From Escherichia phage vB_Eco_QOTSP, in the sequence record OY720014: a DNA stretch of 64,000 nucleotides; one strand, written 5' to 3'. Shown in pieces: positions 47,750 through 54,504 of the stretch. Position 1 is the first letter of the stretch; each line of letters opens with the position of its first letter. A program made the translations under genes and the position numbers. The notes under the pieces are model-generated. The model had not been told where the DNA came from. It did not search any database and was given only the letters and a program-made list of their open reading frames with translations.

Positions 47750-48446
<697 letters not shown>

Positions 48447-48458
48447 TTTCACAAAGTT

Positions 48459-48488
48459 GTTTACATACTGATGAGGTAGTGATACTAT
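48459..48488 (+). promoter_or_regulatory. T4-type early promoter with stem-loop (PeSL-like cassette), copy 1
   Basis: GTTTACA -35, TACTAT -10 inside 9-bp inverted repeat GATGAGGTA/TACCTCATC. Confidence 0.6.
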
Positions 48489-48519: not shown

Positions 48520-48777
48520 ATGAAAACTTTCAAAGAGTTTGCTACAGAAACTATTATCACTGAATCTTCTCATGGTATGGAAGTAAAGCTTGGAATGGCT
48601 TTAGCTGAAGCTGAGCGTCTTTTTTCTCGTATTAAAGAACTTGCTGCTGCAGTCGATCCTTCATCTTTTAAAGGAGACCAAACTAAAGTTAAAGCACTTT
48701 TAGCATTATGCTCTGATGCAGGAGAAATCGCTAAGAACGGTTCTAAGATGAAGAAACGATTAGAAGATTTAAAATAA
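48520..48777 (+). CDS. small protein with capsid-targeting-like N-terminus (MKTFKEFATE)
   Basis: 85 aa ORF with RBS, downstream of early promoter cassette. Confidence 0.6.
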   Translation: MKTFKEFATETIITESSHGMEVKLGMALAEAERLFSRIKELAAAVDPSSFKGDQTKVKALLALCSDAGEIAKNGSKMKKRLEDLK

Positions 48778-48789
48778 TTTCACAAAGTT

Positions 48790-48819
48790 GTTTACACGGG
48801 GTTTTAGTAGTGATACTAT
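48790..48819 (+). promoter_or_regulatory. early promoter/stem-loop cassette, copy 2
   Basis: Same 30-bp upstream block (GATTTAAAATAATTTCACAAAGTTGTTTACA) as copy 1. Confidence 0.6.
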
Positions 48820-51175: not shown

Positions 51176-51248
51176 TGGGAATTAGCCAAGTTGGTAAGGC
51201 ACTGGATTTTGATTCCAGGATGCAAAGGTTCGAGTCCTTTATTCCCAG
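51176..51248 (+). tRNA. tRNA-Gln (UUG)
   Basis: Cloverleaf: acceptor TGGGAAT/ATTCCCA, anticodon loop TTTTGAT, T-arm AAAGG-TTCGAGT-CCTTT. Confidence 0.85.
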
Positions 51249-51249
51249 C

Positions 51250-51336
51250 GCGAGAATGGTCAAATTGGTAAAGGCACAGCACTTAAAATGCTGCGGAATG
51301 ATTTCCTTGTGGGTTCGAGTCCCACTTCTCGCACCA
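51250..51336 (+). tRNA. tRNA-Leu (UAA), long variable arm, encoded CCA
   Basis: Acceptor GCGAGAA/TTCTCGC, anticodon loop CTTAAAA, T-arm GTGGG-TTCGAGT-CCCAC. Confidence 0.85.
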
Positions 51337-51341
51337 AATTT

Positions 51342-51415
<74 letters not shown>

Positions 51416-51461
51416 ATTTATGACTCGTCGTGAGACGCTCAGTTCTTTATTAGGGACTGAT

Positions 51462-52070
51462 ATGCATTTTTATCTTTATAAAATAACAAATAAAATTAAT
51501 AATAAAATTTATATTGGTGTGCATTCTACCGAAAATTTAGATGATGGATATATGGGTTCTGGTAAATTATTAAAAAGAGCCCAAGATAAATATGGTATAG
51601 AAAATTTTTCTAAAGAAATATTAGAGTATTTTGACGATAAAGAATCTATGCTTGAAGCCGAGAAAAATATTGTCACAGAAGAGTTTTTAAATAGACCAGA
51701 TGTGTATAATTTAAAACTTGGAGGTGAAGGTGGATGGGATCATATAAATAATTATCCTATGACAGATCAGCAACGCGAATTAATTTCATTGGGTGTTAAA
51801 AAGGCGCATTCTAACGGAAAATTAAAAGGATGGTCTTCAAATGGATTAATGAAGAATGGCTTTGCTGGTAAAACTCATTCTCAAGAAGCTAAACGTAAAA
51901 TAGCAAAAGCAAACGAAGCAAAAGTTTCTGCGGATGAAAGAAAAAGAAGAATAGAAATTTCTAAATTATATGATTTTTCTAAACGTGGCGAATTGTCTAA
52001 ATATGCTAAGCATATTGGCGTAAGTCATACTCAAGCAAAAAGAATTCTAAATCAAATTAACAATATATAA
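51462..52070 (+). CDS. segB: GIY-YIG homing endonuclease (SegB-like) inside the tRNA cluster
   Basis: GIY-YIG motif YLYKITNKINNKIYIGVHS; start taken at ATG 51462 (ORF track start 51420 overlaps tRNA-Gly). Confidence 0.8.
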   Translation: MHFYLYKITNKINNKIYIGVHSTENLDDGYMGSGKLLKRAQDKYGIENFSKEILEYFDDKESMLEAEKNIVTEEFLNRPDVYNLKLGGEGGWDHINNYPMTDQQRELISLGVKKAHSNGKLKGWSSNGLMKNGFAGKTHSQEAKRKIAKANEAKVSADERKRRIEISKLYDFSKRGELSKYAKHIGVSHTQAKRILNQINNI

Positions 52071-52076
52071 ATATTT

Positions 52077-52166
52077 GGAGGCGTGGCAGAGTGGTTTAAT
52101 GCACCGGTCTTGAAAACCGGCAGTCGCTCCGGCGACTCATAGGTTCAAATCCTATCGCCTCCGCCA
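52077..52166 (+). tRNA. tRNA-Ser (UGA), long variable arm
   Basis: Acceptor GGAGGCG/CGCCTCC, anticodon loop CTTGAAA, CCA encoded. Confidence 0.85.
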
Positions 52167-52172
52167 GTTTTT

Positions 52173-52248
52173 GCTGATTTAGCTCAGTAGGTAGAGCACC
52201 TCACTTGTAATGAGGACGTCGGCGGTTCGATTCCGTCAATCAGCACCA
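52173..52248 (+). tRNA. tRNA-Thr (UGU)
   Basis: Acceptor GCTGATT/AATCAGC, anticodon loop CTTGTAA, T-arm GGCGG-TTCGATT-CCGTC. Confidence 0.85.
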
Positions 52249-52249
52249 A

Positions 52250-52324
52250 GGCCCTGTAGCTGGAAGGTTCAAGCAAGCGACTCATAATCGCCAGATGGTG
52301 GTTCAATTCCACCCAGGGCCACCA
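52250..52324 (+). tRNA. tRNA-Ile (CAU anticodon; Met-like by sequence)
   Basis: Acceptor GGCCCTG/CAGGGCC, anticodon loop CTCATAA. Confidence 0.8.
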
Positions 52325-52333
52325 AATTAATTT

Positions 52334-52420
52334 GGGGAGTTATCCCGTAGAGGTAGCGGTGTGGACTGTAAATTCATTGTCATTGCGACTCGGGTGGTTC
52401 GACTCCACCACTCCCCACCA
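52334..52420 (+). tRNA. tRNA-Tyr (GUA), long variable arm
   Basis: Acceptor GGGGAGT/ACTCCCC, anticodon loop CTGTAAA, T-arm GGTGG-TTCGACT-CCACC. Confidence 0.75.
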
Positions 52421-52424
52421 ATTT

Positions 52425-52499
52425 GGATGTGTAGCTCAATGGCAGAGCGATCGCCTGTTAAGCGATTGGTTATAGGTTCGAATCCTATCACGTCCGCCA
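52425..52499 (+). tRNA. tRNA-Asn (GUU)
   Basis: Acceptor GGATGTG/CACGTCC, anticodon stem ATCGC/GCGAT, loop CTGTTAA. Confidence 0.8.
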
Positions 52500-52503
52500 A
52501 ATT

Positions 52504-52519
52504 TGTGACAACTGTCACA
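52504..52519. promoter_or_regulatory. perfect TGTGA-N6-TCACA palindrome (CRP-consensus-like) in tRNA cluster spacer
   Basis: TGTGACAACTGTCACA seen directly; function unknown. Confidence 0.3.
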
Positions 52520-52613
52520 TTAATATCTACTTGACGCGATTATAGGGGTTGAACTGATCACTCTTCTCTTAATTTCGTGTGAAGACATCTTGATTGTTGG
52601 AGTAGGTATTAAT

Positions 52614-52689
52614 GTGGCCGTAGTTCAGTTGGTAGAACTCGAGATTGTGATTCTCGTAGTCATGGGTTCGACTCCCATCGGTCACCCCA
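52614..52689 (+). tRNA. tRNA-His (GUG), no encoded G-1
   Basis: Acceptor GTGGCCG/CGGTCAC, anticodon stem CGAGA/TCTCG, loop TTGTGAT. Confidence 0.8.
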
Positions 52690-52693
52690 ATTA

Positions 52694-52769
52694 CGGGGCA
52701 TAGCTCAGAAGGAAGAGCAAGGACCTTCTAAGTCCTAGGTCGTAGGTTCGATCCCTACTGCCTCGACCA
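52694..52769 (+). tRNA. tRNA-Arg (UCU)
   Basis: Acceptor CGGGGCA/TGCCTCG, anticodon stem AGGAC/GTCCT, loop CTTCTAA. Confidence 0.85.
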
Positions 52770-52787: not shown

Positions 52788-53138
52788 ATGAAAGGTAATG
52801 TTTATTTAGTAGTTCATGATTTAACATTTTACTTCAATGAATATGAAAAACATATCTCATTTCGTGAAATTAATTTACTTTATCAACATGCGGATTATAT
52901 TTATATTCAAAACGAATTTGGTCATTGGCAATTTCTCAAAAATCGTTCATTTGGCTTAGATGGTTACGAATACTTTGAACGTAAAGACCTTTTAGATAAA
53001 ATTCCGTTATCTACGCAATATCAAAATCACAAATCTTTATATAAATGCCGTCCAATTCGAAATGTTGAATCCGCGTATGAAGCAATTGATTTATGGCGTG
53101 AACGCCGTAAACAGATTGATGCTTTAAAAGAATATTAA
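52788..53138 (+). CDS. hypothetical protein (116 aa)
   Basis: ORF with GAGGAA RBS directly after tRNA-Arg. Confidence 0.6.
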   Translation: MKGNVYLVVHDLTFYFNEYEKHISFREINLLYQHADYIYIQNEFGHWQFLKNRSFGLDGYEYFERKDLLDKIPLSTQYQNHKSLYKCRPIRNVESAYEAIDLWRERRKQIDALKEY

Positions 53139-53447
53139 GAAACCGGGTCGCTACCGGTAAGTCGTCGGACTGATGTTCCCTGAGTAAGGAATTGCGTTAA
53201 TAATCTTTGCGTTTATTGATGCCCTCTTACATCACAGCAGAAACGGCGCACCGAATTATCGATTCGAGGAAATATCTTTGCCGTAAGCCGAGTAGCGTTT
53301 TTGACGGAACGTTCGGATATGGTCGAGATATGGCCTTTTAAAAATATTGAGTAGCGTCAACTGCTTAATAACCGGGTTCGAATCCCGGCGTTTCGTACAA
53401 ACACTTGCCTTAGCAGGTGGAACCCCGACAAGGTTGCCGCAAGGCTT
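53139..53447 (+). ncRNA. putative small stable RNA(s) / tRNA-like element (ORF-free structured region)
   Basis: About 310 bp with no ORF of 60 aa or more in any frame, several local hairpins, tRNA-like T-arm CCGGG-TTCGAAT-CCCGG at 53372..53388, followed by terminator. Confidence 0.35.
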
Positions 53448-53475
53448 AGCCCCGACCGAAAGGTTGGGGCTTTTT
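53448..53475 (+). terminator. rho-independent terminator AGCCCCGACC-GAAA-GGTTGGGGCT + T5
   Basis: Seen directly; near-identical copy at 54007..54035. Confidence 0.8.
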
Positions 53476-53477
53476 GG

Positions 53478-53485
53478 TATAAATA
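53478..53485 (+). promoter_or_regulatory. late promoter TATAAATA upstream of ORF 53526
   Basis: Exact motif about 40 bp upstream of ATG. Confidence 0.55.
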
Positions 53486-53525
53486 TAGTAGTATATTAAA
53501 TCCACGAATTAAAACAGGAAATAAG

Positions 53526-53999
53526 ATGAAATCATATACTCAATTTTTAAATGAAGCGGTGTTAAATGAAGCATCTAGCACCGAAATTCAAGCTGTCGCA
53601 AAAGCAGCCATTGCAGCGGGTAAATATTCCTATAAAGATGCTTCTGATGAATCGCGATTCCAGTTCGCACGCGACATGAAAGCGGAAGGATTTACGGGAA
53701 ATGCAGTTAGTATGGCCTGGAAAAGTTTAGTTGCTACTGGAGCTGCTTTTGCAAAGGCTTCAGGTAAACCTGCTCCTAAGGCTGACCCTAAAGCAGCACA
53801 AGAAAAAAATATTGCTAAAGGAATTATCTCTAGGTATGAAGCAATTCTTAAAGAACTTTTGATAATTAAGACCGAAGGCCAGAAACTTGCGCGAGCTCAT
53901 AGTTTCAAAGATAATCCACATGCTCATGACCTAGAGTATGTTGAAGACATCCAAAAAATTATTAAAGATCGCATTTGGTCTGCTAAACAAATCAAATAA
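53526..53999 (+). CDS. hypothetical 157-aa protein with CTS-like N-terminus (MKSYTQFLNEA); candidate head internal protein
   Basis: ORF with RBS, late promoter, Ala/Lys-rich. Confidence 0.6.
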   Translation: MKSYTQFLNEAVLNEASSTEIQAVAKAAIAAGKYSYKDASDESRFQFARDMKAEGFTGNAVSMAWKSLVATGAAFAKASGKPAPKADPKAAQEKNIAKGIISRYEAILKELLIIKTEGQKLARAHSFKDNPHAHDLEYVEDIQKIIKDRIWSAKQIK

Positions 54000-54006
54000 C
54001 ATTCTT

Positions 54007-54035
54007 AGCCCCGACCAAAAGGTTGGGGCTTTTTG
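54007..54035 (+). terminator. rho-independent terminator (second copy of GCCCCGACC...GGTTGGGGC + T5)
   Basis: Seen directly. Confidence 0.8.
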
Positions 54036-54167
54036 GTATCTAGGCCTTTCCGGGCCTCTCTAGACATCATTTAGTTTCTACCCTTTATAATATATTATCC
54101 TATCTTTTAATTGCCCCTCCCTGCCCTAGAATTCCCCAAAACTTTTTAAAAATTTTTTCACAAAACA

Positions 54168-54198
54168 GTTTACATCCTTACCCTTCCATGGTACTATA
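54168..54198 (+). promoter_or_regulatory. T4-type early promoter (GTTTACA ... TACTAT)
   Basis: Motifs seen upstream of ORF 54241. Confidence 0.5.
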
Positions 54199-54240
54199 CA
54201 ACTATCAACTACTGATACAGAAAACAACTTGGAGAATGAA

Positions 54241-54504
54241 ATGGATAATTACGGCGAACTGTTCAACTTCTTTATGAAATGTGTTTCAGAAGATTTTGGT
54301 CGTACAGTGAATGATATTAAAGTTATCGGTCCTGATCATCCGATGTTTGAAACTTACGCAGTAATGGGTAATGAAGATGGTCAGTGGTATACTGTAAAGG
54401 TTGTGATTAACATGTTCACTGCTGAAGGTTATGTTAAACTGTCTTCTAAAGTTTACCATGATAACGATGAAATCGCAGAAGAATATTTCAATAATATGAA
54501 ATAA
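54241..54504 (+). CDS. hypothetical protein (87 aa)
   Basis: ATG with GGAGAA RBS (ORF track start 54229 is TTG). Confidence 0.6.
   Translation: MDNYGELFNFFMKCVSEDFGRTVNDIKVIGPDHPMFETYAVMGNEDGQWYTVKVVINMFTAEGYVKLSSKVYHDNDEIAEEYFNNMK

Follow-up and report, generated by a model that had tools for sequence, protein, structure and literature searches.

Anatomy and near-neutral drift of the G-poor spacer upstream of the predicted e.8 early promoter in a T4-like phage

In the reference annotation of phage T4, the tRNA genes are followed sequentially by rnaD, rnaC, e.8, e.7, and e.6. Transcription of the tRNA cluster stops after the gene for species I RNA, rnaC (PMC2330249, citing Broida and Abelson 1985). 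The gap between rnaC and e.8 lies at about 70624-70907 of NC_000866 on the minus strand. It is composed of a terminator, a stretch reading CTA(A/G)GCC...CTCTAG, a stretch reading CATCATTTAGTTT...CCCTTTATAATATATTATCC, a C-tract, an UP element, and a GTTTACA promoter that precedes e.8. The T4 literature that was searched contained no map of primary transcripts or 3' ends that extends over this gap, and a 2022 T4 RNA-seq paper mentions RNAC and RNAD and not the spacer between rnaC and e.8.

The individual elements of such a gap have well-described relatives. T4 early promoters are built from UP, -35, TGn, and -10 elements, with the UP elements at -40 to -60 (PMC2988021). The UP elements of strong sigma-70 promoters, including rrnB P1 and the T4 early promoters, are A/T-rich from about -37 to -60 and contain A- and T-runs. 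In the promoter-early stem-loop (PeSL) elements of T4-type phages (Arbiol et al., 2010, PMC2839356; Comeau et al., 2014, PMC4122927), a stem-loop is combined with an A/T-rich region and a TTTACW-N17-TAYWAT promoter, and the stem-loop sits immediately upstream of this promoter. PeSL elements flank variable ORFs, and their repeated copies are points of recombination. The corresponding shuffling model recalls earlier observations at the internal-protein locus (PMC4122927). Rho sites also influence early transcription in T4, and rut sites are described as lacking structure and often being rich in C (PMC2988021). The rut sites of E. coli and lambda lie in C-rich, G-poor, unstructured, and untranslated RNA.

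Here we describe the counterpart of the T4 gap at positions 54036-54167 of a 64-kb stretch of DNA from Escherichia phage vB_Eco_QOTSP, referred to as the window. This segment is probably a composite non-coding gap between two T4-like transcription units, in which only the UP element would be sequence-specific. It is an already known kind of intergenic region whose terminator, UP element, and early promoter are textbook elements. As the counterpart of a T4 region sequenced long ago, it carries little weight for biology at large.

The gap between rnaC and e.8

Judged by its sequence, the window is derived from a Tequatrovirus, a T4-like phage. A 1.3-kb query around the segment matched 626 phage records, nearly all of them from Tequatrovirus, with identities of up to 99.8%. 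Positions 54003-54240 align base for base with the rnaC-to-e.8 sequence of T4. The segment therefore corresponds to the stretch of T4 that separates the rnaC terminator from the e.8 early promoter, and its elements follow one another in the same order as in T4 (Table 1). The original prediction, which had described a spacer flanked by a terminator and an early promoter, was correct about both of these elements. A search of 5,426 E. coli genomes with the segment returned no host match. In a sensitive blastn search of 50,697 phage records, relatives of the core were found in Tequatrovirus and in phiC120 only; additional hits within a genome are due to the promoter and terminator modules. Phage phiC120 (NC_055718.1, 186.6 kb) is filed as Mosigvirus, yet it contains a Tequatrovirus-type spacer and cassette with about 90% identity, and is either recombinant or misclassified.

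Table 1. Positions of the elements in and around the rnaC-e.8 gap of the window
Feature	Position	Strand	Remarks
Intrinsic terminator, copy 1	53448-53471	+	10-pair stem with 7 G-C pairs, T-run; identical sequence in T4 after rnaC
Inserted cassette	53478-53999	+	late-promoter motif TATAAATA at 53478-53485; 157-aa gene at 53526-53999 (phrog_2280)
Intrinsic terminator, copy 2	54007-54040 (stem-loop 54007-54030)	+	stem-loop followed by T-run and GGTAT
GGCC-tttccg-GGCC element, CTAGGCCTTTCCGGGCCTCTCTAG	54040-54063	+	terminator-like match, weak hairpin
G-poor filler	54064-54139	+	about 75 bp, Tequatrovirus-specific, ends in the C-tract
A/T- and pyrimidine-rich core of filler, ACATCATTTAGTTTCTACCCTTTATAATATATTATCCTATCTTTTAATTG	54064-54113	+	no recognisable signal; near-neutral diversity
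C-tract, CCCCTCCCTGCCCTAGAATTCCCC	54114-54137	+	peak of C over G; canonical G-quadruplex motif on minus strand
UP element (predicted), A/T-rich, TTTTTAAAAATTTTTTCACAAAACA	54144-54167 (about -60 to -37)	+	TTTCACAAA motif shared with other early promoters
Early promoter (predicted)	54168-54197	+	GTTTACA at 54168, 17-base spacer, TG-extended TACTAT at 54192-54197
e.8 gene	54241-54504	+	downstream of the predicted early promoter; named after the T4 annotation

The tRNA cluster upstream spans 51176-52769 and comprises ten genes (Gln, Leu, Gly, Ser, Thr, Met, Tyr, Asn, His, and Arg); T4 has eight. An ORF resembling GIY-YIG homing endonucleases (51420-52070) is located between tRNA-Gly and tRNA-Ser, and segB sits elsewhere in T4. 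Another ORF, of 116 residues (52788-53138; phrog_3355, unknown function), lies between tRNA-Arg and the rnaD homolog, where T4 has no gene. The T2 record labels its homolog 'similar to RB69ORF150c'.

The tRNA/rnaD/rnaC unit is predicted to end at terminator copy 1, which by its sequence is the ortholog of the T4 post-rnaC terminator. The stem-loop of copy 2 reads AGCCCCGACC-AAAA-GGTTGGGGCT and is followed by a T-run of five bases. Its folding energy is -19.5 kcal/mol (z = -4.3). The junction on its 3' side, ...GGGCTTTTTGGTAT/CTAGGCC, is fixed among relatives, with a nucleotide diversity of 0.018 over 54031-54040.

At the other end of the gap, the predicted e.8 promoter matches GTTTACW-N17-TAYWAT exactly and its second hexamer is TG-extended (ATGGTACTAT), in agreement with the GTTTACA promoter that had been proposed at 54168. 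The homologous promoter is annotated as 'predicted early promoter' in phage fPS-2. The region contains a run of GTTTACA promoters. The e.8 promoter is the sole early promoter in the window with about 100 bp of non-coding sequence upstream, the others abutting the preceding gene, and no other strong plus-strand terminator in the 64 kb precedes a promoter.

The last 25 or so bases of the segment belong to this promoter. The TTTCACAAA module recurs upstream of the promoters at 48459 and 48790, and similarity to the annotated nrdC.10 early promoter of T4 begins at 54145. Positions 54144-54167, placed relative to the transcription start from the -10 hexamer, are A/T-rich with A- and T-runs like the UP elements described above, and the likeness is limited to this end of the segment. 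They probably act as the UP element of the predicted e.8 promoter, which would offer a contact to the alpha subunits of the host RNA polymerase and make the promoter stronger. The spacer had originally been drawn up to 54167; that description holds as far as about 54144, and annotation should assign the remainder to the promoter.

The TTTCACAAA-containing promoters at 48435-48488 and 48766-48819 share an identical upstream module (GATTTAAAATAATTTCACAAAGTT and GTTTACA ... GTGATACTAT). Such repeated promoter cassettes could mediate recombination.

Cassettes upstream of the spacer and the GGCC element

In T4 the terminator directly follows rnaC, whereas in the window an internal-protein-like gene of 157 residues, with a terminator copy of its own, is inserted in between. 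The encoded protein begins with MKSYTQFLNE/A, an N terminus of the internal-protein type, which we take to resemble the capsid-targeting leader of T4 internal proteins. The cassette is flanked by direct repeats of about 34-38 bp, at 53444-53481 and 54003-54040. The record of RB32 describes the homologous gene as 'flanked by 34 bp imperfect direct repeat'. The cassette has no counterpart in T4, T2, N2, and CJY920.

Other Tequatroviruses (loci L015, 329-892; L016, 330-892; L005, L006, L012, and L017-L019) contain a different gene at the same junction. This gene encodes 188 residues, begins with the leader MKTYAEFLTE/A, and comes with a hairpin of its own, AATCCCTATC...GATAGGG. The copy of the gene in OE5505 (L016) is broken into two ORFs, which suggests that it is decaying. 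A single junction is thus found behind three upstream architectures: rnaC itself, the internal-protein-like gene of the window, or the other such gene with its different hairpin. From these comparisons the gap between rnaC and e.8 appears to be a hot spot at which internal-protein cassettes are exchanged, and the spacer and promoter would form its constant right-hand flank.

The remains of an exchange are visible in IME341 (L007, about 1290-1400). The 3' end of a gene (ending in ...AMLAFHINPFRFYKN and a stop) is located upstream of e.8, between the terminator of an internal-protein-like gene and the next terminator, and the gene is intact in L009 and L011. This fragment clearly illustrates how the exchange of cassettes leaves part of a gene behind between terminators.

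A shared junction behind varied cassettes fits PeSL shuffling. As in the PeSL elements, a stem-loop, an A/T-rich region, and a promoter of the TTTACW-N17-TAYWAT type adjoin variable ORFs here, and the ORFs are replaced between close relatives at one junction. Two differences are evident. First, the stem-loop ends at 54030 and the -35 element begins at 54168, leaving 137 bp between them, of which about 100 bp is filler; the compact PeSL-like arrangement is found at the orthologous site of the Dhakavirus type. Second, the repeats that flank the cassette are terminators alone, unlike in PeSL. We infer that terminator, spacer, and promoter together may provide a constant right-hand homology, the cassettes being swapped by recombination between the terminator repeats. 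For phage engineering, the junction of terminator and spacer is a natural cassette insertion site.

The first part of the spacer, behind this junction, contains the GGCC element, whose potential hairpin arms are AGGCC (54042-54046) and GGCCT (54053-54057). The hairpin had been singled out in the original prediction. Its sequence is present, and as a structure it does not stand out: it folds at -9.6 kcal/mol (z = -1.0), a value matched by 32 of 200 shuffled sequences. Folding of the hairpin alone in five variants gave no structure better than shuffles; its homologs reach -5 to -6 kcal/mol, compared with -16 to -19.5 kcal/mol for genuine terminators. When the segment is folded in full, the minimum-energy structure does not contain the hairpin, which is followed by CTCTCTAG and not by a T-run.

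Nor is the pairing conserved. Positions 54040-54063 are the most variable part of the spacer, with a diversity of 0.10 and variation in 11 of 24 columns. The arms read GGCC...TTGTC in RB32 and GGCC...GGACC in many others; T4 reads AAGCC...AGACC and therefore has no GGCC hairpin. Among the homologs the pairing is often lost without compensation. An intrinsic terminator at this position was rejected on account of the weak fold, the lack of a T-run, and the loss of pairing in T4, RB32, and others.

The sequence TCTAGGCCTTTCCG at the start of the element matches, at 13 of 14 bases, the 5' half of the terminator that precedes e.8 in loci of the Dhakavirus type (L007, L009, and L011; shuffle p 0.0005). 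That terminator, CTAGGCCCTTCCGAAAGGTTGGGCCTTTTTT, stands directly before the orthologous e.8 promoter. The similarity suggests that 54040-54063 is a second copy of the terminator that has since decayed, probably a remnant of an earlier exchange of cassettes.

Drift, natural deletions, and strand asymmetry of the filler

The spacer was compared among 22 Tequatrovirus genomes for nucleotide diversity, and with 21 other Tequatrovirus and five Dhakavirus-type loci for its anatomy. Diversity is 0.075 in the spacer (54041-54139) and 0.066 in its core (54065-54139). Within e.8, third codon positions have a diversity of 0.088 and fourfold-degenerate sites one of 0.107, compared with 0.007 for first and second positions combined. 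The UP element, promoter, and 5'UTR (54140-54240) have a diversity of 0.054. Spacer and third positions of e.8 are not distinguished by a permutation test (p = 0.54), and a subsample picked independently of the spacer gave a similar result (0.077 versus 0.092, p = 0.51). The spacer drifts near-neutrally.

A 246-base query was covered over at least 80% of its length in 514 of 565 matching records, with 82-100% identity. The spacer is accordingly kept in more than 500 Tequatrovirus records. However, its diversity lies at the level of silent sites, and its retention therefore reflects close relatedness and not demonstrable selection. The homologs are so close, differing by about 8-10% at silent sites, that there is still room for weak or composition-level selection.

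Several phages, known from assemblies only, have lost parts of the gap. ST2 (L027, OM982647.1) lacks 64 bp homologous to about 54051-54114, comprising the 3' half of the hairpin and most of the core, and keeps the C-tract. The taxonomy label of the ST2 record, Kagunavirus (Guernseyvirinae), looks wrong for a 171-kb genome that resembles T4 at this locus. CJY920 has a 13-bp deletion in the core, and four phages have a 10-bp deletion in the UP region. Two independent records, phiC600P9 (L013) and SP21535 (L014), lack about 31 bp homologous to 54143-54174, which contain the UP element and the -35 element, and retain the spacer and the TG-extended -10 element. To be expressed in these two phages, e.8 would need either an extended -10 promoter or read-through. 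The filler is absent from the Dhakavirus-type relatives, which have 80-87% identity in e.8 and in which terminator and UP element are directly adjacent. These natural deletions suggest that about 64-100 bp could be removed in phage engineering.

The base composition of the segment is asymmetric between the strands. Its 132 bases comprise 50 T, 36 C, 35 A, and 11 G, corresponding to 65% pyrimidine and a GC skew of -0.53. Among all 132-base stretches of the window, 0.2% have an equally low G count and 0.13% an equally negative skew, and the lowest GC skew of the whole 64 kb (-0.73) falls at this locus. The asymmetry peaks at 54076-54153, where 78 bases contain 22 C, 3 G, and 18 YC dinucleotides. 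This is the top C/G ratio on the plus strand, reached by 0.008% of equally long stretches when both strands are counted. The richness in C/T runs and the C-tract reported in the original prediction were both found. The composition, which had been called atypical, is so in its excess of C over G; the G+C content of 36% equals the average of the window. The skew ranges from -0.45 to -0.57 in all 22 homologs. A bias so extreme and kept in every homolog is not accounted for if the filler is purely a leftover.

Readings of the filler

In the reading that we hold to be probable, the segment separates two units. The upstream unit would consist of the tRNA genes, rnaD, and rnaC, its terminator being duplicated behind the inserted internal-protein-like gene, and the downstream unit would begin with the early promoter of e.8. 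The filler between them (54064-54139) would have no sequence-specific role and would passively space the terminator from the promoter.

Alternatively, and with a much lower probability, about 54064-54139 may be kept for its composition, as a putative rut site. The RNA of polymerases reading through the terminator, which would be untranslated, C-rich, and unstructured, may load the host Rho factor, and the polymerase would be stopped before or within the e.8 promoter. The site would act as a back-up terminator or insulator that shields this promoter from the strongly transcribed tRNA/rnaC unit or from the late-transcribed internal-protein gene. The segment is like the rut sites of E. coli and lambda in composition and intergenic position, with the best sense-strand C/G ratio of the 64 kb. 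Folding of the RNA revealed no gain over shuffled sequences on either strand (z = -0.43, at -15 kcal/mol for 137 nt, and z = -0.64). Six-frame translation found all frames closed and no conserved ORF in the segment, so its RNA would have no ribosome cover. The segment also lies directly 3' of a terminator whose T-run has only five bases. Near-neutral drift would leave a composition-dependent function intact as long as C exceeds G, which is true in 22 of 22 homologs. Polymorphism is most frequent at G positions (8 of 11), and 2 of 21 A positions mutate to G.

These counts are small, however, and the persistence of the skew may reflect simple inheritance among close relatives. The segment differs from known rut sites in being located behind a strong intrinsic terminator, which is moreover duplicated here, and in being missing in the sister genus, which does without the filler. 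ST2 dispenses with 64 bp of it, although the C-tract is retained. If Rho loading were true, the segment would be a simple and mappable model site for the long-discussed role of Rho in a T-even phage.

The C-tract may alternatively form non-B DNA (a minus-strand G-quadruplex or a plus-strand i-motif) that modulates the promoter or stalls replication or antisense transcription. This is very improbable. The tract contains four runs of at least three bases separated by loops of 1-7. No second motif of this kind occurs on either strand in the 64 kb, and shuffled sequences yield 0.07 per window. The -35 element follows about 30 bp downstream. However, the motif is intact in just 13 of the 22 Tequatrovirus homologs. 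Single substitutions break it in the other nine, including T4, RB32, and RB27; T4 reads CCCCTCTCCGCCC and therefore has no four-tract G-quadruplex motif. T-even DNA carries glucosylated hydroxymethylcytosine, making an i-motif doubtful, and we know of no minus-strand transcript at the C-tract.

Least probable of all is a small structured RNA, a small protein, or an extra promoter (middle, late, or antisense) encoded in the segment: the segment adjoins the stable-RNA genes rnaD and rnaC, contains a TATAAT string (54085-54090), and overlaps a region where RB32 has an annotated 29-residue minus-strand ORF, but its poverty in G leaves too few pairing partners for a structured RNA, consistent with fold z-scores near zero on both strands, the frame of the RB32 ORF is stopped here, and a sigma-70 scan of 54036-54167 found no site besides the e.8 promoter. 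In an Rfam scan at a permissive E-value, the best hits in the segment scored 12-18 bits against thresholds of 47-60, the top one reaching 18 bits against a threshold of 47. The segment contains neither the late-promoter motif TATAAATA, whose nearest occurrence (53478) is part of the upstream cassette, nor, by inspection, the MotA box TGCTT. By eye, the best -35-like hexamer for the TATAAT string is TAGACA, 19 bases away. This combination was rejected as a promoter because the spacing is too long and T4 has TAGGCA instead.

A replication origin was ruled out as well. The mapped T4 origins have soc (oriA), rI.-1 (oriC), repEA (oriE), uvsY (oriF), and ori(34) (oriG) as landmarks (PMC3016281), and none of these is located at the tRNA/e.8 locus.

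The RB32 ORF mentioned above, RB32ORF132w (L022, 1001-1090), is annotated over the e.8 promoter. Its frame contains an in-frame stop in the QOTSP sequence, and it is therefore probably a spurious gene call. The same probably applies to the other mini-ORFs called here in some records.
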